A stretch of DNA of 64,000 nt from a virus (Duplodnaviria; Caudoviricetes), in the IMG/VR virus record IMGVR_UViG_3300046820_001270, positions 224,001-288,000 of that record, one strand, 5' to 3'. Positions 41,844-53,296 of this stretch are shown here, one piece after another. Under the pieces are notes generated by a model that had not been told where the DNA came from, searched no databases, and saw nothing but the letters and a program-made list of their open reading frames with translations. Within the stretch, counting starts at the first letter, position 1. Each line of letters starts with the position of its first letter. The translations under genes were made by a program, and so were the position numbers.

Positions 41844-44753
41844 ATGGCAAGTAATAACAGAGTTTTCGTGTCTCCAGGTGTCTACACATCTGAACTCGAT
41901 TTAACATTTGTAGCACAGAGTGTAGGTGTTACAACATTAGGTTTAGCGGGTGAGACTTTAAAAGGTCCAGCTTTCGAACCTATTTTAATTTCTAATTTTG
42001 ACGACTTTAAATTGTATTTTGGTTCAACATCTCCTGAAAAATTTGGTGATGGTAATCCAAAATATGAATTAGGTTACGTAGCAAAATCGTATTTACAAGA
42101 ATCAAATCAATTGTTCGTAACAAGAGTATTAGGTCTTACAGGATATAAACCATATAAAACATTCGGTATAAAAACTATCGGTGGTGTTATTTTACAAGAA
42201 TATGTTAGTGGTTTTACCTTTGAGGTTAATACAGTGTCAAGTACTACTTTTGACAATACACCTCAAGTTTATGAAAAATTATTTGATAAACCGGCGTATG
42301 ATGGTAAAACAATTACCGAATATATTATTTCAAATTTTAGTGGTTTTACAAGTGCTGATGCCGGTAAATGGTTTGTTTTAGGTAAAATACCTGATGGAGA
42401 ATCATTACCAAGTGCCTCAAAAGAATTAGTTTCTCCATTAACTGGAAAATATAATTCTGAAAATTATAACACTAAAGAATGGTATAATACATTGTTTAAT
42501 TTATCAACACCAGGAGATACAACAACAGTAGATTCCGTTTATTCTTTTATATTTGAATTTATAAGTGAAAGTGGTTCTACTAGATTTGACGTTACAAGAT
42601 ATGAATATGATGCACAATTAGCCGAAGACTATCATAATGTGGTGGTTGCAGCTATTAGACCAAGAGGTGTTTATAGTGGTCAAACGTTAATTCATGAAGT
42701 TACTGGTAATACAAGTTTCACATTAACTGAAGTTTCAGGTAGTAATTTAAATTTCAATCCATTAGGTGAATTTACAATTAATGTAACAGGTTTCACAGAC
42801 GGAGCAAAAGAATTTACATGTACATTTGATACAACATCTTCAAAATATATTTCTAAAGTATTAGGAACAGAACCATTTGATAAAGATCGTGGTAATTATC
42901 CTGTTTATGTTCACGAAACATACCCTAATTACTTAATGGCAGCATATCAAAGAGGTTTAATTAGAGGTATCTCTATGGAAGCTTCTTATGAATTAGAAGG
43001 TAATAACTTCTTAGATTCTTGGGATACCACAATTTCACCAATGGTTGTATCTGAGGTTCGTGGTGGTAACGTTGCGGATTTATTCCAAGTTATCACAATA
43101 TCTGATGGAGAAGCTGCAAACTTCCAAGTTAAAGTTAATATTCAAAATATTAATTTAGAAACAATGGAATTTGATTTAGTAGTTCGTGATTTTAACGATA
43201 CTGATGATAATCAAGTTGCTTTAGAGAAATATTCAAGATGTTCAATGAATCCTGATATGCCAGGTTATGTGGCTAAGAAGATTGGTACATCTGATGGTGA
43301 ATATGCGTTAGTATCTAAGAGAATTATGTTAATGATGGCGGACGGTGCACCTGTAGATGCTGTACCTGCAGGATTTAAAGGTTTTGCGAATAACGAAGCT
43401 TTTGGATCTGATAACGATACTTTTGGTAATATTATCTACAAAACAAGATATAACGACGCGGGTGACGTTGAAACATATGACGTATCAGGTGCTCCGAATA
43501 TTGAATCAGGAGATAAAGTAAGAAAAGTAATGTTAGGTTTATCAAGTACATCTGGATTTGACCAAGATTTATTGAAATTTAAAGGTGCAAGTGGTACAAC
43601 TGAAACATTTGGTTTTCACTTGTCAACAAATGCTTCAACAATCCTTGATACAAACGGAAAACAAATTTTCCAAACTACATCATACGATTTAGAAGGTCAA
43701 ACAGAAGAAGACACAAACAAATTAACAAATATTAACTATCGTAAGTTCTCATTCGCAGTTTACGGTGGTAGAGACGGTTGGGATATCTATAGAACAACAA
43801 GAACAAATACAGACGCTTATATCTTTGGTAAAACAATCTATAAGTCAGGTCATACAGTAAACGGTGGTGTGTTTAGTTCAAATGTAGGTAATTCTGATTA
43901 TTATGCTTACTTACAGGCTATCAAAACATATGAAAACCCTGAGGCAATTGATATTAACGTATTTGCGACCCCTGGTATTAACTTCCAAGAACATAGTTCA
44001 TTAGTTAACCAAGCAATTGACATGATCGAATCTGATAGAGCGGATTCATTATATATTATGAACTCACCTAATATCACAGGTGCTACCGCAACTGATGAAA
44101 TAGTGTCTTCTTTAGATAATGCTTCAATAGATTCTAACTACTCAGCAACATATTGGCCTTGGATCCAAGTAAGAGATACAGATAACGCAACTCAATTATA
44201 TATCCCACCAACAGGTGAGGTAGTTAAGAACATTGCCTTAACTGACAATGTGTCTTATCCTTGGTTCGCAGTTGCGGGTTATAGTAGAGGTTTAGTAAAT
44301 GCGATTAAAGCGACTAAGAAATTGACTTTAGACGATAGAGATGTATTATATAAGAACAGAATTAACCCAATTGCAACATTCTCTGATACAGGTACCATTA
44401 TTTGGGGTAATAAAACATTACAAGTTAGAGAATCGGCTTTAGATAGAATCAACGTAAGAAGATTGTTATTAAGAGCAAGAAAGTTAATTTCGGCAGTTTC
44501 TGTGAGATTATTGTTTGAACAAAACGACGAACAAGTAAGAAACGAATTCTTAAGATTGGTAAATCCTATCTTGGATGCAATTAAGAAAGAAAGAGGTTTA
44601 TACGATTTCCGTGTAACAGTATCTAACGATCCTGAGGATATTGACGCAAACACAATGAGAGGTAAGATCTACATCAAACCAACTCGTTCTCTTGAATTCA
44701 TTGACGTAGAGTTCGTGATTACTCCAACAGGAGCTTCATTTGAAAATATCTAA
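41844..44753 (+). CDS. gp18: Tail sheath protein (gp18-like)
   Basis: FVSPGVY.SELDL, YWPW, PWFAVAG..RG, LYKNRINPI, WGNKTLQ...LDRINVRRLL and IYIKPTRSLEFI. Confidence 0.95.
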   Translation: MASNNRVFVSPGVYTSELDLTFVAQSVGVTTLGLAGETLKGPAFEPILISNFDDFKLYFGSTSPEKFGDGNPKYELGYVAKSYLQESNQLFVTRVLGLTGYKPYKTFGIKTIGGVILQEYVSGFTFEVNTVSSTTFDNTPQVYEKLFDKPAYDGKTITEYIISNFSGFTSADAGKWFVLGKIPDGESLPSASKELVSPLTGKYNSENYNTKEWYNTLFNLSTPGDTTTVDSVYSFIFEFISESGSTRFDVTRYEYDAQLAEDYHNVVVAAIRPRGVYSGQTLIHEVTGNTSFTLTEVSGSNLNFNPLGEFTINVTGFTDGAKEFTCTFDTTSSKYISKVLGTEPFDKDRGNYPVYVHETYPNYLMAAYQRGLIRGISMEASYELEGNNFLDSWDTTISPMVVSEVRGGNVADLFQVITISDGEAANFQVKVNIQNINLETMEFDLVVRDFNDTDDNQVALEKYSRCSMNPDMPGYVAKKIGTSDGEYALVSKRIMLMMADGAPVDAVPAGFKGFANNEAFGSDNDTFGNIIYKTRYNDAGDVETYDVSGAPNIESGDKVRKVMLGLSSTSGFDQDLLKFKGASGTTETFGFHLSTNASTILDTNGKQIFQTTSYDLEGQTEEDTNKLTNINYRKFSFAVYGGRDGWDIYRTTRTNTDAYIFGKTIYKSGHTVNGGVFSSNVGNSDYYAYLQAIKTYENPEAIDINVFATPGINFQEHSSLVNQAIDMIESDRADSLYIMNSPNITGATATDEIVSSLDNASIDSNYSATYWPWIQVRDTDNATQLYIPPTGEVVKNIALTDNVSYPWFAVAGYSRGLVNAIKATKKLTLDDRDVLYKNRINPIATFSDTGTIIWGNKTLQVRESALDRINVRRLLLRARKLISAVSVRLLFEQNDEQVRNEFLRLVNPILDAIKKERGLYDFRVTVSNDPEDIDANTMRGKIYIKPTRSLEFIDVEFVITPTGASFENI

Positions 44754-45082: not shown

Positions 45083-45571
45083 ATGGCCGATTTATTAATG
45101 AAAATGCCGACACCTTACGAACCAAAAAGGGTCAACCGATTTATCGTAAGATTTAACTCATCTTTGGGTATAAACGAATGGTACATATCTGCAGCTTCTA
45201 GACCAAGTGCTAAAATCAACTCAGTTGCAATTCCTTTCTTGAACACTTCAACATATGTTGCAGGTAGATTTGAATGGAACGAAATTAAAGTGACTTTTAG
45301 AGATCCAATTGGTCCTTCAGCATCACAAGCACTTATGGAATGGTTCCGTTTACATGCTGAATCAGTTACAGGTCGTATGGGATATGCTGCAGGTTATAAG
45401 AAAGATGTAGAATTGGAGATGTTAGATCCGACAGGAGTTGTGGTTGAAAAATGGTTATTAGAAAACTGTTTCTTAACTGACTTAAACTTTGGTGAATTAG
45501 ATTACAACAGAGATGAATTAGCTAATATCACATGTTCTTTGAGAATGGATAGATGTATTTTGATATACTAA
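45083..45571 (+). CDS. gp19: Tail tube protein (gp19-like)
   Basis: EPKRVNRF, RPS, YVAGRFEW...TFRD, YKKD..L..LDP.G.VVEKW; follows sheath. Confidence 0.9.
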   Translation: MADLLMKMPTPYEPKRVNRFIVRFNSSLGINEWYISAASRPSAKINSVAIPFLNTSTYVAGRFEWNEIKVTFRDPIGPSASQALMEWFRLHAESVTGRMGYAAGYKKDVELEMLDPTGVVVEKWLLENCFLTDLNFGELDYNRDELANITCSLRMDRCILIY

Positions 45572-45592
45572 TATTACAATTTTTCATATACG

Positions 45593-45630
45593 AAAACTGA
45601 TAGTTCAAAAGATTATCGGTTTTTCTTTTT
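45593..45630 (+). terminator. Intrinsic terminator after tube
   Basis: AAAACTGATAGT-N7-ATTATCGGTTTT with G-U pairs plus T tract. Confidence 0.7.
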
Positions 45631-45674
45631 TAAAAACTTTACTTTAGACTAGTTATTAAGTAAATTATAGTATT

Positions 45675-46424
45675 ATGGAAGAAATGAGAATAGACCCAAC
45701 AATTGCGTATGATGTGGTAGAATTACCTAGTAGAGGTATTCATTATACAAACAAAAAAAAATCAGTAAGAGTGGCTTATTTAACAGCTTCAGATGAGAAT
45801 ATACTTTCATCTCCTAGTTTTTTAAATACAAATACTGTAATTCCTGAACTTTTAAGAAGAAAAATATTGGATAAAGATTTTTCTATTGAGGAACTTGTTG
45901 AAGAAGACAAACAGGCAATTTTAATATTTTTAAGAAACACATCTTTTGGATCTGAATATATGGTAACAACATATGATCCAAAAACAGATAAAGAATTTGA
46001 AGTAAAAGTTAATTTAGAAAGTTTAAAACTAAAAGATTTTAATTTAAATGAAGATTCTAATGGTGAGTATTCATATTATTTAGATAAAAGTAAAGTTGAT
46101 GTTACATTTAAATTTTTAACCAAAAAACAAGAAGATGAAATTGAAAAAATAAAAGAAAGTTGGAATGGTAATGGTGTGGCTCCTGTTATAACAAAACAAC
46201 TTGAAATGATGATAAAATCATTTGGTGGTGTAAGAGACGCTTTAAAAATTAGAAGTTTTATTGAATTAATGCCAATTAAAGATTCCCAAGATTTTAGAAA
46301 ATTTATACAAGATAATAAACCAGGGTTAGATTTAACCCAACAAGTAACAACCCCATCAGGAGATACAATCCAAGTTAATATTGGGTTTGGGGTAGAATTT
46401 TTTCGTCCTTTCTACGGATTATAA
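45675..46424 (+). CDS. Tail assembly chaperone or baseplate hub assembly protein
   Basis: VELPSRG..Y...V.YLTA.DE.IL pattern; between tube and tape measure; ends ...GVEFFRP. Confidence 0.75.
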   Translation: MEEMRIDPTIAYDVVELPSRGIHYTNKKKSVRVAYLTASDENILSSPSFLNTNTVIPELLRRKILDKDFSIEELVEEDKQAILIFLRNTSFGSEYMVTTYDPKTDKEFEVKVNLESLKLKDFNLNEDSNGEYSYYLDKSKVDVTFKFLTKKQEDEIEKIKESWNGNGVAPVITKQLEMMIKSFGGVRDALKIRSFIELMPIKDSQDFRKFIQDNKPGLDLTQQVTTPSGDTIQVNIGFGVEFFRPFYGL

Positions 46425-46554
46425 AAAAATACAATTAGATGAAATACTCTTTTTAGTTAAAAGAGGGTTTAGTTATGGTGATATCCTTACTATGCCAGTT
46501 TATTTACGAAGATATTATGTAGGGTATCTAATTGAATTAGAAAATGGTACATAG
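46396..46554 (+). CDS. Unannotated +1-frame extension of the chaperone, reached by probable frameshift
   Basis: Frame open from after TAG 46393-46395 to TAG 46552-46554: NFFVLSTDYKKIQLDEILFLVKRGFSYGDILTMPVYLRRYYVGYLIELENGT; only ATG is 20 codons from the end. Confidence 0.7.
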   Translation, partial: NFFVLSTDYKKIQLDEILFLVKRGFSYGDILTMPVYLRRYYVGYLIELENGT

Positions 46555-46568
46555 TTGTATTTATAGGT

Positions 46569-48452
46569 ATGCCTAATTATTCAAAAATTTTAAAAGAATC
46601 AAGAAACGCTCAAGAAGCCATTGATAAATGGAAAAGTCAAAACAATAGAGTAATTGACGGAGCAACTGAAGCGTCTTTTAGAAATGAACCGGCATCATCA
46701 TTTAAAGGAGGTAGTACTATGAGTAGTGGTGATGAAGAAGTATCGGGTACAATATCTAGTCCGTATGATGTTTTAAAAGCAGGTAGAGGTAGATCGACCA
46801 TATCTGAAATGAGTGGTCAATATAAAGTAAAAACAGATGACTTAGGTGGATTTAATGTTGAAATAGAAATATTAAAACAACTTAAAAGAGAATCTGATTT
46901 ACATACTGAGATTAATGAAAAAATGGGTATTACTGGAGAATTGTCCAGAGTATTCAGAGATACCTTATTAGATACGGTACCCAAGGCTGCATCACTTAAC
47001 TATGATATGGGGAATATCGCAGAAATGGTAACCCAATTATCGGCAAATACAGGTAAATTTAATTTAATCGCGGAAAGAACATTAGAACGTTCATTTGAAA
47101 CTGCTAGAGCATTCGGTTTAACATTACCTCAACTTGCGGATGCGATGAGTGAATTTGAAAAAGTTGGTTATGGTGCCTCAGATACACTTAAAAAAATTAA
47201 TAAAGCGGGAATTGATACACTTAGTCTTGGTTTAAATTCAAAAAAACTTACACAAGAATTAAAAGATAATATTGGTAAATTAAATGAATATGGATTCGCA
47301 AATGGAGTTGCTGGTTTAAATAGAATGGTACAAAAGGCAACAGAATTTAGAATGAATATAGCCGAATCATTCAAATTGGCGGATAAAGTAATGAATCCCG
47401 AAAGTGCAATTGAATTGACTGCAAATATGCAAATGTTAGGTGGTGCAATTGGTGACCTTAATGATCCACTTAAATTAATGTATATGGCAACTAATAATGT
47501 TGAAGGTTTACAAGACGCATTACATGGGGCGGCCGCTGGTTTAGCAACATACAATAAAGAACAAGGAAAATTTGAAATAGTAGGTGCTAATCTAAGAAGA
47601 GCAAAAGAAATGGCATCTCAATTAGGTATATCATACCAAGAATTTGCGAAAGGTGCGGTCGCGGCAAACGAAAGAATTGCTGCAGGTGAAGCGTTAGCCT
47701 CCAAAGGATTTAATATTAAAGATGACGAAAAAGAATTCTTAACCAACTTAGCACAAATGAAAGATGGTGAAATGCAAATCGTTATCCCAAAATCATTAGA
47801 AGATAGTTTAGGAAAAGAATTAGGAGGAGAAAAAGAAATTAAACTAAGTCAATTAACTAAAGATCAAATAGATAAGTTAGTACAATATCAAGAACAGTTA
47901 GAGAACAAAACCGCAGAAGAATTGGCTAGAGATATGTTCAATTCATCAAAGAACATAGAATTATATACACAACAAACGACATTAGCATTAACAAAATATG
48001 GTAAAGATATAACTTTAGGTAAAAATGAAAGACCTGACGGTCCTTTAGAGAGTTTATCTAGATTACAAGCTAAAGGAGGTAAACTTAAGGCGGATTTAAT
48101 ATCGAATAATCCTGAATTTTTAAAAAATCTTTTTGAAGAAACTTTTGGACAGGCTTTTCAAGGGACAAATGGTTTAATAAATGCGGTTAAAATGGGATTT
48201 AGTGGACTTACAATTGCGGGAGAATCTCTAGTTCAAAAATTAGAACAGTATATAAAAAATACTCCTAACGAGAAATATGATAAAAAGGTGAAAGAAGAAG
48301 AGAAATGGAATGAAAGTTCTAAAGTTAAAGATCGAAGAGTTACATTTAATAATAATCTTAAAATCACACATGTAGGATTAGGAGACGGTACGATAAGTGA
48401 TATCACCAAAACAGAAAAAGGGTATTTAACCGGTTATGATGATTGGGGATAA
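46569..48452 (+). CDS. Tape measure protein
   Basis: Helical, Ala/Gly/Met-rich, follows tube and chaperone; 627 aa. Confidence 0.7.
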   Translation: MPNYSKILKESRNAQEAIDKWKSQNNRVIDGATEASFRNEPASSFKGGSTMSSGDEEVSGTISSPYDVLKAGRGRSTISEMSGQYKVKTDDLGGFNVEIEILKQLKRESDLHTEINEKMGITGELSRVFRDTLLDTVPKAASLNYDMGNIAEMVTQLSANTGKFNLIAERTLERSFETARAFGLTLPQLADAMSEFEKVGYGASDTLKKINKAGIDTLSLGLNSKKLTQELKDNIGKLNEYGFANGVAGLNRMVQKATEFRMNIAESFKLADKVMNPESAIELTANMQMLGGAIGDLNDPLKLMYMATNNVEGLQDALHGAAAGLATYNKEQGKFEIVGANLRRAKEMASQLGISYQEFAKGAVAANERIAAGEALASKGFNIKDDEKEFLTNLAQMKDGEMQIVIPKSLEDSLGKELGGEKEIKLSQLTKDQIDKLVQYQEQLENKTAEELARDMFNSSKNIELYTQQTTLALTKYGKDITLGKNERPDGPLESLSRLQAKGGKLKADLISNNPEFLKNLFEETFGQAFQGTNGLINAVKMGFSGLTIAGESLVQKLEQYIKNTPNEKYDKKVKEEEKWNESSKVKDRRVTFNNNLKITHVGLGDGTISDITKTEKGYLTGYDDWG

Positions 48453-48502: not shown

Positions 48503-51500
48503 ATGCCAAAATACCTAGATTTTGATGCTACTAAGGATTTTAGGGATAAAATGTTAAATAGGACATTAAATCCTGTTTATGGAAAAAGTCCGTCCCCTAA
48601 AACTTTTACAAGTTCTAACTATAGTATCCAAACTTTAGGAGATAGTCCAAATTTATTATTACCTCAAGTTGATGGTAATAGGTCAAATGATCTATTAATA
48701 CCACAAAAATCAAATGTTTTTAAACCAAATGAATATTTTGTTAAAGACAGTATTAATGATATACCTAGAAGAGCAAATTTAAATTTATATCCATATTTTA
48801 TCCAAAGTGACGATAATTTAATCGGTATAATGTTAACTAAAAACTACGATACCGAGTCTGAATTATTTAAATTTGCTGCAAATAATATAAGAACCAACCC
48901 ACAAGGTCCGGTTTTAGCGAGAATCAGTAAAAATCTTAATACCGCAATTAATGCAAAAAATAAAATAGGTGAGGCTTTAGGTGGTAATACAACTACATTG
49001 ATTAATATTATTAGAGGTAAACAACCTTTAATTGAGGGAAATGAAAGTATCACGGTATCAAGTAGTTTATTAGGTAAAGGATTTGATTTTTTACAGACAG
49101 TTGCAGGAACTCAATTACCTTTTAGTACAATACCAGGTGATTATTTAACAAATCCCCGTAATCCGATTAATATAAGACCGACTAATGTTTCTACAGGAAC
49201 AAAGGTTTGGCAAGATTTAACAGGGGTTTTAGGGTCAATAGTGGGTATTCAAAGAAGACCACTACCATCAAGAAAACCATCTGATATTTTGATTGAACAC
49301 ATGGGTGAATCATCAAAAAATAGATTATTTGATTTATTGAGTTTTTCTAAATACGCACCAAATTACACAACCACTGCGAGATCACAAATGTCCACCAATG
49401 TTGGTAGAATCCCAAGTCAATTTGCACAAGGAATTAAGAACGCATTAGGAATGGAGGCACCAAATAGTGGTGCATATATAGGTGATGATAGAGAAAATGA
49501 TGTAAAAAATGCCACCACAGATTTGTTTAGTGGAAGACCTGTAAGAAGTAGTTATTATCTTACATTAATGTTTGATAAAGTTGCTGCAGAATTATTTCAT
49601 AAAAATAGAGGTATTACTGAAAACGGACCAATTGGTGGTAATTTAACTTGGTTAAGTAAAAATGGAACAACAAAAGACATTAGTTTTCAATATATTAATG
49701 AAGACATATCGACAAAATATAATTTTAGAGAGGATTCTATTTTAAATATTACACAACAAATATTAGACTCAAAACCACAAAATGGTGGAGATGCTTTATC
49801 ACATATAGGTCACGTATTAGATCAAACAAGTAGATATTTTAAAGATGGTGATACATTAATTTCCAGAGGTTCAGGTGTACGTTATATGGATAACTCAGGT
49901 AAAGATATTGGTGTTGAATATGCTAGAGTATGGACAAAAGATAGACCTTATTTTACATATGGTGATACAATGCCATTATGGAAAGAAAGTGTAAAAAAAC
50001 CATATTATAATGGTGCAACAGGAGGTACAGGAGATACTACTAATAGTAAAAGTAATTTTTATAGAAGAACAGGTATTAGAAGATTTGATGGTAGTGTAAT
50101 GACAAATCCGTGGAATTTAAATATTGCACCAATGTCAGACGGAACTACAAATCCAGAATTTCCTGGATCATCTAATATAATTAAAAACCCAAAAGGGAAT
50201 GGATTTTACGCTAAAAAATATATGTTATCTATTGAAAATTTAGCATGGGCGGCGTCAACACTTCCGGGTTATACTGTAAATGATTTACCATTTTCAGAAA
50301 GAGGACCAAATGGAGGCCGTGTTATGTGGTTTCCACCATATGATTTGAAAGTGTCTGAACAAAATAGTGCAAAATGGGAACCAAATACATTTTTAGGTAG
50401 ACCAGAACCAATATATACATATCAAAATACAGAAAGAAATGGTAGCTTATCATTCAAAGTAATTGTCGATCACCCAAGTATATTAAATTTACTAATAAGA
50501 GAACATTTTAAATCTGTTAATGATGAAGATGTTGATAAATTTTTAAACGCATTTTTTGCAGGAGCAAAGGATATTGATTTTTATAGTTTAATCAGACAAT
50601 ATTCACATTTAGATTCGGACGATATAAAAATGATTCAAAATTATCTAAATGACGGTGGAAGTCCTTCAGATATAAAAAGACGTAAAACAGCAACATCATC
50701 ACCTACACAAGATAATCCAGGTGGAAGTGATAGTTTTGATGCAAATAAAGATAAGGTAAATGAAACATTAAATTTTTATTTTCTAAACGCCTTTCCTGAA
50801 GCCGGAGACGACTTATTTAAATCAAATATGTCATTTGATTTAGTAAGTAATGGTACAATTTTAGATACCAAAATTCAAGAAAAAAATAAACAATTATTAA
50901 GAGAGTCATTAAATAAAATTATAAACAGTACCGACACAAAAGATATTGAGGATAGAGAAAGTATTTTTAAAAGAAAAGATATTCCAAGTGATCAAACAGG
51001 TACCACAATAAATAAAAAAATAACAGAACTTGAAAATATTTTTACCGAATCAACCACATCAAATAGTAAACTAATAGATATATTAACAAAATTAAAGAAA
51101 GATTTAAAAGATGAAAATATTGAAGGAGATGTTGTTGTAAATGTTAGCTCATATACATCAAAGGCGGGAGAGGAAAATTTAAATTTTAACCTTTCATTTA
51201 GAAGATCACATTCTTTATTTTTATATCTTTTTAATAATATCAAAAAAGACGGTACTAATATAGATTTAAAAAAATGGACGTTTTCAAAATTAGAGTCTGA
51301 CGTACCGGCAAAAGGAAAAGAAAGATTTGTTATTGAAAAAGAATTTTCAATAAAAGAATTAGGTTATAATGGAGAAGGAAGTGTAATTTTCAGATCAAAC
51401 AATTTTGGTGCAGATAATAATTTACAATCAGGATATTGTAATACTACAAATTATAATGACATTTCTTTAACATATTATGCTCCGAGTTCATATGGGTGTA

Positions 51501-53296
51501 GATCTACAGAATTTATTATTGAGTATGCTAAATCTAAAAAAGAAGACAAAGCATCAAACGCCTCAGTAAAAAATTCATTAGGACCTACAGGTAATATACC
51601 AAGTAGTAATACAAAACCTCCAATAGATGTGATGAAAAGAATCATCATGAAGACTTTATCTGAACAGTATTACTTTAAAAAGTTGGAAGAGACTTCACCA
51701 ATGATTTACACATCATTAAAAGAAAAATTAAAATATTTTCATCCGGGTTTCCATTCAATGACACCTGAAGGATTAAACTCACGTTTAACATTTTTACAAC
51801 AATGTTTACGACCTGGTAATACAATACCGGTGAAAGGTTTATCAGACAATTCAGATATTAACGCAAGAAATACAACATTTGGACCACCACCTATTTGTGT
51901 TTTAAGAGTTGGAGATTTTTACAATTCAAAAGTTATTATAAAAGATCTTAATATACAATTTGAACAAAATGTATGGGATATGAACCCAGAAGGTATTGGT
52001 ATCCAACCAATGATTGCGGACGTAACAATGCAATTAAGTTTCTTAGGAGGACACGGTTTAGAAAAACCTGTAGAAAGATTACAGAATGCTTTGTCATCTA
52101 ATTTCTTTGCAAATACTGAAATGTATGATGAAAGATCTGAATCAACCAATACTAAAATGGGAGGTAAAGATAGTGAAGACTTTACAAGGGAATTTTTACA
52201 AAGTTTAAATGACACACTATTACCAATAACTGGTTTAAAAGATAGTAATGGAAAAGGATATACTGAAGGTCAATATATTGGTACAATTTCTCCTTCCGAT
52301 AAAACGATAGATTATACTACATTAATAAATGATGTATATAAAAGTGTGGAACCATATTTTACCACATACGAAAAAATGTACAATAGTTTAACAAAACAAT
52401 ATGGACATAAAATTGTGAATTTGATGGTTAATAAAACTGAAAGAACAAATAACAAATATGACATATATAGTTCTTCGGGAAATACAACACCAAATCAAGT
52501 TTTGTTATTTGGTAATTTTAAAGACACCTCACCTTTTTCAAAAACTATTGAGACATTAATTGTAAGATTTGAAGTATATCTAACACTCCAAAAAGAAAAC
52601 GAAAAGTACTCAGTTTTAAAATTATTAAAAATTGACGATGATATAACAGATGATCTTAAAGATTTTTATGAAGAAGGTCTTTATGATCATTTTAAGACAT
52701 TCTTTAAAGAAAAAGTTGGAGATTTTGCTTCATCTAAAATTGCAAAAGATTATGAAGATATAAGAAATAAATTAATTGTAAGTTTAGATAAATTAAATAC
52801 CGTTATTAAATATAATGCGGATTTTAAGATAGATAAAAATAAAATTTATAAATTAACAATTACAGGAGATACATCTGAAATGTATAGTGAATATAGTTCA
52901 TGTATGGATTTCATAAAAAGTAATGAACCTAAAATGTATAAAAAATTAGATACATCATTATCTAGTTCATTGGACGACGAAAAAATGAGGGATATTATCT
53001 ATACCGTTTTTTATAATGATTATACGAATGCGTTGGATAATATTGAAAATCAATTTGATACGGAAGATGAAGAAAGTTCTAAAATTGTAGATAAGATTAG
53101 AAGAAAATTAGGTAGAGATTTTTATGAAACTAAAGATATTAATATGGGATTTGGTAAGGTACCAACATTAAAAAATTCTAAAAAAGTGTCATTTGATTAC
53201 ACAGATGAAATATTAGATGAAAATGACGATATTAAAAAACTGTATTCTACACAATATAAACCATCGGACGATAAATTAAATTATTATAAAAAATGA
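48503..53296 (+). CDS. Large baseplate protein with tube-initiator-like and OmpA-like domains
   Basis: FLGRPEPIYTYQNTER and PPICVLRVGDFY tube-like motifs; N..LS.RR and RSTEFII OmpA-like pattern at about 50760-51530. Confidence 0.6.
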   Translation: MPKYLDFDATKDFRDKMLNRTLNPVYGKSPSPKTFTSSNYSIQTLGDSPNLLLPQVDGNRSNDLLIPQKSNVFKPNEYFVKDSINDIPRRANLNLYPYFIQSDDNLIGIMLTKNYDTESELFKFAANNIRTNPQGPVLARISKNLNTAINAKNKIGEALGGNTTTLINIIRGKQPLIEGNESITVSSSLLGKGFDFLQTVAGTQLPFSTIPGDYLTNPRNPINIRPTNVSTGTKVWQDLTGVLGSIVGIQRRPLPSRKPSDILIEHMGESSKNRLFDLLSFSKYAPNYTTTARSQMSTNVGRIPSQFAQGIKNALGMEAPNSGAYIGDDRENDVKNATTDLFSGRPVRSSYYLTLMFDKVAAELFHKNRGITENGPIGGNLTWLSKNGTTKDISFQYINEDISTKYNFREDSILNITQQILDSKPQNGGDALSHIGHVLDQTSRYFKDGDTLISRGSGVRYMDNSGKDIGVEYARVWTKDRPYFTYGDTMPLWKESVKKPYYNGATGGTGDTTNSKSNFYRRTGIRRFDGSVMTNPWNLNIAPMSDGTTNPEFPGSSNIIKNPKGNGFYAKKYMLSIENLAWAASTLPGYTVNDLPFSERGPNGGRVMWFPPYDLKVSEQNSAKWEPNTFLGRPEPIYTYQNTERNGSLSFKVIVDHPSILNLLIREHFKSVNDEDVDKFLNAFFAGAKDIDFYSLIRQYSHLDSDDIKMIQNYLNDGGSPSDIKRRKTATSSPTQDNPGGSDSFDANKDKVNETLNFYFLNAFPEAGDDLFKSNMSFDLVSNGTILDTKIQEKNKQLLRESLNKIINSTDTKDIEDRESIFKRKDIPSDQTGTTINKKITELENIFTESTTSNSKLIDILTKLKKDLKDENIEGDVVVNVSSYTSKAGEENLNFNLSFRRSHSLFLYLFNNIKKDGTNIDLKKWTFSKLESDVPAKGKERFVIEKEFSIKELGYNGEGSVIFRSNNFGADNNLQSGYCNTTNYNDISLTYYAPSSYGCRSTEFIIEYAKSKKEDKASNASVKNSLGPTGNIPSSNTKPPIDVMKRIIMKTLSEQYYFKKLEETSPMIYTSLKEKLKYFHPGFHSMTPEGLNSRLTFLQQCLRPGNTIPVKGLSDNSDINARNTTFGPPPICVLRVGDFYNSKVIIKDLNIQFEQNVWDMNPEGIGIQPMIADVTMQLSFLGGHGLEKPVERLQNALSSNFFANTEMYDERSESTNTKMGGKDSEDFTREFLQSLNDTLLPITGLKDSNGKGYTEGQYIGTISPSDKTIDYTTLINDVYKSVEPYFTTYEKMYNSLTKQYGHKIVNLMVNKTERTNNKYDIYSSSGNTTPNQVLLFGNFKDTSPFSKTIETLIVRFEVYLTLQKENEKYSVLKLLKIDDDITDDLKDFYEEGLYDHFKTFFKEKVGDFASSKIAKDYEDIRNKLIVSLDKLNTVIKYNADFKIDKNKIYKLTITGDTSEMYSEYSSCMDFIKSNEPKMYKKLDTSLSSSLDDEKMRDIIYTVFYNDYTNALDNIENQFDTEDEESSKIVDKIRRKLGRDFYETKDINMGFGKVPTLKNSKKVSFDYTDEILDENDDIKKLYSTQYKPSDDKLNYYKK

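Follow-up and report, generated by a model that had tools for sequence, protein, structure and literature searches.

Does a tail chaperone gene in a tailed phage make one protein or two? The question arises in the window, by which we mean the whole 64,000-nucleotide (nt) stretch analysed here, positions 224,001 to 288,000 of the IMG/VR virus record IMGVR_UViG_3300046820_001270 (Duplodnaviria; Caudoviricetes). An open reading frame (ORF) of 249 codons, called ORF0 here, ends at a stop codon beyond which a second, overlapping frame stays open. A first-pass annotation, made from the letters alone, had proposed that a +1 programmed frameshift joins the two frames and gives a G/GT-type pair of tail chaperones. 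The comparative evidence supports that proposal, because the extension is under purifying selection in the +1 frame, most relatives have no start codon for it, the layout is kept to ~25% identity, and profile comparison relates the extension to the tail of T4 gp51. A +1 programmed frameshift probably makes a short and a long form of a chaperone of the PF12322 family from this gene.

Two reading frames at the end of a chaperone gene

The elements concerned are the following.

45675 to 46424, plus strand: ORF0, the short form, 249 amino acids (aa), a T4 gp26-like hub/tail assembly chaperone (PF12322 T4_baseplate, phrog_150)
46398 to 46407, plus strand: proposed shift site UUU UUU CGU C, placed by the position at which the frame opens and by the invariant TTT at the second Phe codon
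46396 to 46424, plus strand: dual-coding overlap of the two frames, 29 nt, in which CCT and TTC are invariant and CGY and TAY vary
46405 to 46554, plus strand: +1-frame extension of 49 codons plus TAG, the putative gp51-like C-terminal tail of the 292-aa long form (from the ratio of nonsynonymous to synonymous differences, phrog_150, the T4 gp51 alignment and AlphaFold2)

In the ORF0 frame, positions 46389-46424 read GGG GTA GAA TTT TTT CGT CCT TTC TAC GGA TTA TAA. The stop codon (46422-46424) lies 6 codons past the second Phe codon, and the protein ends ...GVEFFRPFYGL*, where T4 gp26 ends ...KEFFELL*. In the +1 frame, a TAG at 46393-46395 is followed by uninterrupted codons from 46396 until the TAG at 46552-46554; the frame does open at GAA TTT TTT CGT, as had been claimed. 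The start-poor character given to this frame beyond the chaperone stop was also borne out, since its first ATG, GTG or TTG is the ATG at 46492 (...LTMPVY...), 20 codons from its end. A single four-base step at TTTC (46401-46404), from TTT (46401-46403) to GTC (46405-46407), yields a 292-aa protein (P0001) with the ending predicted for the shifted product, in place of 249 aa. Within the overlap, the changes at CGY and TAY are synonymous in frame 0 only, and the +1 frame receives V/A and T/M.

A -1 shift was rejected. The extension is in the +1 frame, and the -1 frame ends ~12 codons beyond the site in the window and is short in all the distant lineages read.

ORF0 matches PF12322 (T4_baseplate) with 29.1 bits, above the cut-off of 24.5. 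Its short form matches phrog_150 ('baseplate hub') at E 1.2e-9, and the long form at E 1.9e-11. By these profile matches, ORF0 is a member of the T4 gp26/gp51 hub-assembly-chaperone family. The first-pass annotation had called it only a chaperone; the gene is not an anonymous one.

Conservation in close and distant relatives

The best 120 of 2707 protein relatives (79-95% identical) are each 249 residues long. Related loci were present on 80 viral contigs at 69-87% identity, 79 of them readable through the site. All 79 have a 249-codon ORF0 and a well-conserved +1 peptide that runs ~44 codons beyond the ORF0 stop. Each of the 80 loci, like the window, has exactly one copy of the motif TTY TTT CGY CCT TTC TAY. 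With a single copy per locus and the same layout in 79 of 79, the arrangement of frames at the site is far from chance. The second Phe codon is TTT in all 42 unique close relatives, and TTT CGY is kept in the same 42 as well as in locus L090 and Bacillus phage HSE3; alignment of the locus, which had been suggested as a check, thus found the TTT-CGN pair unbroken in the window's clade.

Since relatives and contigs keep 249 codons and the same +1 extension, the two frames are not a sequencing error. One 158-aa database fragment (P0128) does read through the junction in a single frame (...TFFALSTDY...), as it might if a single 292-codon frame had been broken by faulty sequencing or assembly or had recently been inactivated. 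We give this explanation next to no weight: hundreds of independent assemblies keep two frames, a search for single-frame proteins of 160-511 aa that carry the extension found none, and the split is kept to ~25% identity.

Selection on the extension was estimated from pairwise Nei-Gojobori counts of the proportions of nonsynonymous (pN) and synonymous (pS) differences among 53 unique sequences. In the +1 frame, pS is 0.594 and pN is 0.116, and the pN/pS ratio is 0.196. The same bases give 1.23 in the second frame and 2.25 in the third. For comparison, ORF0 in its own frame has a pN/pS of 0.281. By this contrast with the two alternative frames, both of which exceed 1, the extension is coding.

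Coding constraint would also be expected if the extension were a separate small protein, made from a non-canonical start, by re-initiation near the ORF0 stop or, in relatives with TAT at 46413-5, from an ATG. Gene callers have annotated small ORFs at this place in Microcystis phage Mel-JY01, Flavobacterium phage immuto and HSE3, and 13 of the 52 unique close relatives have a +1-frame ATG within the overlap that could serve as a start. The annotated starts, however, differ among the phages and cut into conserved residues. In 29 of the 52, as in the window, there is no ATG, GTG or TTG in the +1 frame ahead of the extension's only ATG, 20 codons from the end, and yet the part between the ORF0 stop and that ATG has a pN/pS of 0.177. 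The extension stays in register with the FF dipeptide while the 0-frame stop varies in position by 3-8 codons, and in T4 gp51 and the fused protein P0176 the same tail forms one polypeptide with the same domain. An independent start in relatives was the result that the first-pass annotation had named as telling against it; a possible one is present in the minority with the overlap ATG and missing from the 29. We regard a separate protein as quite improbable and a frameshift as the better account of the extension.

The layout also occurs in 16 further lineages at 25-40% protein identity. Among these are Mel-JY01, immuto, a 484-kb uncultured phage, HSE3 and loci L085, L086, L089-L091, L093-L096, L100 and L101. 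The cultured phages came from a tblastn search, which found the same arrangement at ~28% identity; each has a sheath gene, a tube gene, a PF12322-like ORF that stops shortly after FF, and an overlapping +1 ORF. The sites in four of the lineages read as follows.

Microcystis phage Mel-JY01: TTT TTT TGG CCT AAG TAA
Flavobacterium phage vB_FspM_immuto: TTT CTT TGG CCT ...
484-kb uncultured phage LR756508: TTT CTA TTC CCT ...
Bacillus phage vB_BceM-HSE3: TTC TTT CGT CCC ...

Relatives numbered 1705 in a scan of 1.84 billion cluster representatives. Nearly all of their alignments break off at query residues 243-245, with only a few residues of the subject left. In the tails of the 150 best representatives, nearly all full-length members stop 2-8 residues past an [FLIV]F dipeptide. 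DNA for the distant lineages was obtained by exact-protein look-ups, and single-protein scans of viral contigs gave no match for P0136 or P0176 and two loci only for P0186. Twelve further lineages were read at the DNA level, three of them N-terminally extended forms of 476-506 aa, and all 12 have the +1 extension. The extensions of 18 frameshifted lineages can be aligned, with P and R invariant and M nearly so ('MP...R'). The layout is thus of ancient origin and widely distributed.

A large branch of the family (P0134-P0272; L093, L100, L101) has 150-250 additional N-terminal residues and proteins of 400-585 aa. This branch ends ...[VIL]F[LIF]N[IV]x*, not ...FF[WR]P..., and the three members read as DNA all have a +1 extension.

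The proposed slip site and the change of frame

The position of the shift is narrowed by the frames themselves. The +1 frame opens immediately ahead of FF in the window, L090 and L086, and the 0-frame stop comes 3 codons past FF in Mel-JY01 and L091. If the shift takes place at the homologous position in all lineages, it therefore lies within x-F-F-(R/W)-P. At the homologous dipeptide, 14 of 17 lineages have a 0-frame UUU_Y, on which tRNA-Phe can re-pair perfectly at +1; the CUU_U known from prfB is found in L101, and GUU_U in L093. The codon that follows UUU is CGY in the window's clade, L090 and HSE3, UGG in eight lineages, and CUU or CUA in others. The common element across lineages thus appears to be NUU_Y, mostly UUU_Y.

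From this layout we infer the following route, including the codon involved and the unequal yield of the two products. Most ribosomes would terminate at 46422-46424 and release the 249-aa, gp26-like short form. A fraction would shift to +1 within UUU UUU CGU (46398-46406) and read on to 46554, making the 292-aa long form. Most likely, the P-site tRNA would slip by +1 on UUU_Y: with CGU still to be decoded in the A site, peptidyl-tRNA-Phe would leave UUU for UUC (or leave the first UUU for the UUU one base on). The long form would then carry a helical tail of 49 residues, the counterpart of the C-terminal tail of T4 gp51. By analogy with lambda, the shared body may hold the tape measure or the hub, and the tail may recruit another tail component.

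The first-pass annotation had described the site as a UUU_CGU signal of the influenza PA-X type. This description fits the window's clade, HSE3 and L090, but it is not general, since other lineages have UUU_UGG, UUU_CUU, UUU_CUA, CUU_U or GUU_U. In the long ORFs of the window, CGC is rare (0.1 per 1000 codons, 2 of 645 Arg codons), and CGC is the form at the site in 25 of the 42 unique relatives. No tRNA gene was found in the window. Within the window ORFs of at least 150 aa, TTT_CGN occurs in frame once, at the shift site, against ~5.6 expected, a count that takes in some minus-strand ORFs that may not be genes. The single occurrence may reflect avoidance of a shift-prone codon pair.

Several results weigh against a programmed +1 shift, in addition to the overlap ATG of the 13 relatives described above. 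CGT, the codon at the window's own site, is not rare (7.1 per 1000 codons and 21% of Arg codons in the long ORFs, where it is the second most used Arg codon), and the 'hungry codon' part of the mechanism is therefore weak for the window. L094 (TTC TTC TAC) offers no good +1 re-pairing at any codon, and L093 re-pairs better at -2 than at +1. No structure upstream or downstream of the site is shared by the 16 lineages, and in the window the downstream sequence folds no better than shuffled sequence. Finally, the fold matches to tail assembly chaperones, given in the next section, are all below Z 8, the level advised for trust.

The same tail, with one more Phe (293 aa), would result if peptidyl-tRNA-Phe on the second UUU slipped by -2, back onto UUU within the U6 run. 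The chaperone genes of phage Mu are known to use such a shift. The U6 of the window permits perfect -2 re-pairing, and in L093 (GTT TTC) and L101 (CTT TTC) a -2 slip of tRNA-Phe also lands on UUU. Where the run is broken as TTC TTT (L020-L023, HSE3), however, the -2 slip falls on UCU, while the +1 move from UUU to UUC stays perfect. LR756508, immuto and L095 fail at -2 in the same way, and +1 accounts for more lineages than any single -2 rule. We consider a -2 shift unlikely, although less so than a separate small protein.

Alternatively, the frame could change before translation, if RNA polymerase dropped a U in the T6 run and some mRNAs encoded the fusion directly. The window does have six T at 46398-46403. 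Six T, however, is short for efficient transcriptional slippage, and the TTC TTT relatives and the TTT CTT, TTT CTA and GTT TTC lineages keep the layout with runs of 3-4 T, which leaves this explanation very little probability. Ribosomal +1 slippage on UUU_Y is the reading that we retain.

One structure close to the site is specific to the window's clade.

46350 to 46393, plus strand: stem-loop upstream of the shift site, ACCCCR ... RUCCAA-loop-UUGGRU-Y-GGGGU (RNAalifold, window clade)

In the RNAalifold alignment of 41 sequences, 99.8% of the cells of this two-stem hairpin are paired. Two pairs show G-U-compatible changes, and one A-U/G-C pair covaries through two synonymous sites. The observed score was matched by 0 of 500 shuffles. 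The rare codons ACC and GGG in the hairpin region are invariant in the clade. Its 3' arm (YGGGGU) ends 4 nt ahead of the first UUU, and the GGGG at 46389-46392, 5 nt ahead of the first UUU, is invariant in the clade, has equal spacing in immuto and is absent in most distant lineages. The hairpin itself was not found in the distant lineages. It is a candidate modulator of the shift, and may act, if at all, as a hairpin or as a Shine-Dalgarno-like element.

About 45 nt upstream of the site, L091, L094 and L095 encode a conserved 'PSG' motif as CCCC-N4-GGGG, a small G+C-rich hairpin. In the window, unlike in those lineages, CCCC pairs with the GGGG at 46389-46392.

Counterparts in T4 and in recoded tail genes

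T4 gp26 and gp51 appear among the hub assembly chaperones in PMC3004832, and gp51 is not in the finished particle. A requirement in hub or tail assembly, together with absence from the virion, is known for the T4 proteins only. The 282 positions of phrog_150 are covered by these proteins and by the two forms from the window as follows.

T4 gp26: positions 14-235
T4 gp51: positions 13-280
Window short form: positions 16-233 (39.1 bits)
Window long form: positions 16-266 (44.9 bits)

The short form stops where gp26 does, just past the FF motif, and the tail of the long form matches the part of phrog_150 that in T4 is covered by gp51 alone. T4 gp26 has 208 aa, and the +1 frame of gene 26 is open for 14 codons only. 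T4 gp51 has 249 aa; its PF12322 match (E 3.9e-52) spans residues 1-201, and the ~48 residues beyond can be aligned with the +1 extensions. BLASTP of the long form against T4 gp26 and hhalign of the family alignment against the single T4 gp26 or gp51 sequence were not significant. Since these comparisons are not significant alone, the link to T4 rests on the Pfam and PHROG profiles.

The first-pass annotation had stated that T4 itself has no described G/GT shift. This holds for gene 26, which lacks the extension, but it needs a correction: T4 has no shift because its two forms are two genes, 26 (short) and 51 (long), which supply both. PF12322 genes number two in T4, one in the complete 335,630-bp relative and one in HSE3, while the AR9 genome gave no PF12322 or phrog_150 match. 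T4 differs from the window in that its two genes are divergently transcribed, without a frameshift, and adjoin genes 25, 27, 28 and 29, while the window gene follows the tube gene. A T4 gene 26' (L084:3803-4090) is also annotated, an internal in-frame start that gives a 95-aa C-terminal product; the PF12322-derived products of T4 are thus three (gp26, gp26' and gp51), all made without frameshifting.

A third arrangement is found in a groundwater lineage (L087:986-2734, L088:924-2672), which has tandem PF12322 paralogues and no frameshift. The short paralogue has 273 aa, ends ...LFWPNSDID* and covers phrog_150 positions 10-230. Directly 3' of it, the long paralogue is naturally fused, with 304 aa, a gp51-type tail in frame and phrog_150 positions 20-279. 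That this lineage, which lacks the shift, has both a short and a long paralogue suggests a need for the two forms. Three genetic routes appear to lead to one and the same protein pair: frameshifting, tandem paralogues and the divergent genes 26 and 51 of T4.

An AlphaFold2 model of the long form was built from a 35-row alignment, from which the distant extension peptides were left out because MAFFT misplaced them against full-length proteins. The mean per-residue confidence (pLDDT) is 91.4 and the predicted template modelling score (pTM) is 0.79. The body is modelled as two alpha/beta domains, and the extension as three helices (247-262, 267-271 and 275-289) past a less confident linker, with block-mean pLDDT of 78-94. 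Structural matches in BFVD are gp26 and baseplate-hub proteins (E down to 5e-27). Those in AFDB are likewise gp26/baseplate-hub proteins, and an AFDB 'tail assembly chaperone' cluster matches residues 122-212 at E 0.035. Foldseek against the PDB gave no match for the whole model or for residues 118-243, and a sequence-profile search of the PDB gave 0 matches. Exhaustive alignment of residues 118-243 to 48,161 solved chains placed five small phage or prophage proteins at the top, with unrelated chains beginning at Z 3.0.

3fgx: Z 5.5, 90 aligned
YqbN, 3klu: Z 5.3, 83 aligned
HK97 tail assembly chaperone, 2ob9: Z 4.8, 82 aligned
PLE protein: Z 4.4
YuA protein: Z 3.4

Residues 3-100 also match 3fgx (Z 6.8). 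These predicted folds hint at two chaperone-like domains in the body.

The gene lies among structural tail genes, in the order sheath, tube, ORF0 and a 627-aa ORF.

41844 to 44753: sheath gene, 969 aa
45083 to 45571, plus strand: tail tube gene (gp19-like), the upstream neighbour (phrog_4542 at E 1e-27; PF06841 at 27.9 bits, slightly below the cut-off)
46569 to 48452, plus strand: 627-aa ORF, a tape-measure candidate by position and size only

Mel-JY01, immuto and HSE3 have the same gene order, and in L094, L101 and the P0229 contig the chaperone gene is flanked by a tube-like gene on its 5' side and a long ORF on its 3' side. The first-pass annotation had called the gene downstream a tape measure. 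Position and size agree with this, and the gene at that position is annotated as tape measure in immuto and HSE3, but the 627-aa ORF matches no Pfam or PHROG family and shows no resemblance to T4 gp29. The 1597-aa ORF that lies 3' of it (48503-53296) has no Pfam or PHROG match either. Several distant relatives have endonuclease-type genes (T5orf172/MUG113, MTES_1575, DUF559) between the tube and chaperone genes (L094:1251-1571; L100:1033-1509; L101:1301-1879).

In the window, a hairpin of ~10 bp (45592-45631, with 45593-45602 paired to 45614-45623) followed by a T run lies 3' of the tube-gene stop. It looks like an intrinsic terminator between the sheath/tube genes and the chaperone/tape-measure genes. 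A consensus terminator scan missed it, probably due to its 11-nt loop. The G+C content of the window is 31.7%. A blastn search of the cultured phage collection with 45083-48452 gave no match, so that at the DNA level the window is without a close relative in culture. The related contigs are up to 335 kb long, one of them rated complete, and the phage is therefore a jumbo phage.

Tail chaperone frameshifting is a textbook feature of lambda-, P2- and Mu-like phages, and to our knowledge T4 and its relatives have been thought to lack it. In the review PMC5009743, the lambda gpG/gpGT shift is presented as a conserved frameshift of tail assembly chaperone genes (Xu, Hendrix and Duda 2004). The window gene resembles it in lying between the tube gene and a candidate tape measure, in having the shift near its 3' end, in its predicted short and C-terminally extended products with a common N-terminal body, and in an arrangement kept despite diverged sequences. 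It differs in that the shift is +1 and not -1, with no X XXY YYZ heptamer in use, and in that the protein belongs to PF12322, with two domains and 249 aa against ~140 aa; the similarity in fold is weak (Z ~5).

The +1 site of influenza A PA-X is UCC_UUU_CGU (Firth et al. 2012, as cited in PMC5009743). The window site shares its P-site UUU, the C as next base, the A-site CGU, no evident stimulatory structure and presumably low efficiency. In contrast to PA-X, the system is bacterial, CGU is not rare, the E-site codon is UUU or GAR and not UCC, and UGG, CUU or CUA replaces CGY in most related lineages. On the bacterial side, +1 sites with UUU followed by a pyrimidine are known in E. coli. The shift also differs from that of prfB (CUU_UGA), since the A site holds no stop codon; the stop comes 6 codons after the second Phe codon, and 3-8 elsewhere. 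A possible counterpart of the Shine-Dalgarno-like element of prfB in the window's clade is the invariant GGGG, which is also part of the 3' arm of the hairpin.

Listeria phages PSA, A118 and A500 have a +1 shift at CCC_UGA in tsh, the major tail protein gene, and a +1 chaperone shift has been predicted in the archaeal myovirus HSTV-2 (PMC5009743). All of these resemble the shift proposed for the window in being +1 recoding that gives a second, longer tail-related product. The PSA type, however, uses a Pro codon before a stop, or a pseudoknot, in a major tail protein gene, while the shift in the window would take place on Phe codons several codons before the stop of a chaperone gene. A full-text literature search, of incomplete coverage, found no published frameshift in gp26/gp51-type genes.

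We lean slightly toward a wider reading of these results. A one-gene form of gp26/gp51, expressed by programmed frameshifting, would be present throughout a very large set of phages that have contractile tails and T4-type tail genes (at least 1700 protein clusters), and whose hosts include Bacteroidota, Cyanobacteria, Firmicutes and unknown bacteria. The shift would be +1 on NUU_Y, with no shared stimulator, in every lineage sampled. The two genes of T4 would be a duplicated, frameshift-free derivative, and gp26/gp51 would be the T4-lineage counterpart of lambda G/GT.

The layout is present in the cultured phages Flavobacterium phage immuto, Microcystis phage Mel-JY01 and Bacillus phage vB_BceM-HSE3, and experiments are therefore feasible. 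For recoding studies, the family offers a natural set of +1 sites in bacteria, among them UUU_CGY, UUU_UGG and CUU_U, that have no obvious stimulators. For annotation, it provides a correction to thousands of phage genomes, in which a truncated 'baseplate hub subunit' stands beside an orphan small ORF or an unannotated gap. The data indicate that gp26 and gp51 are the short and long forms of a single ancestral gene, which most relatives still recode, in the unusual +1 direction. T4 gp51 has long been called essential, with a function described as unknown or 'catalytic', and its part in hub assembly has been unclear for decades. If the wider reading is true, gp51 gains a concrete and testable role as a GT-like adaptor.

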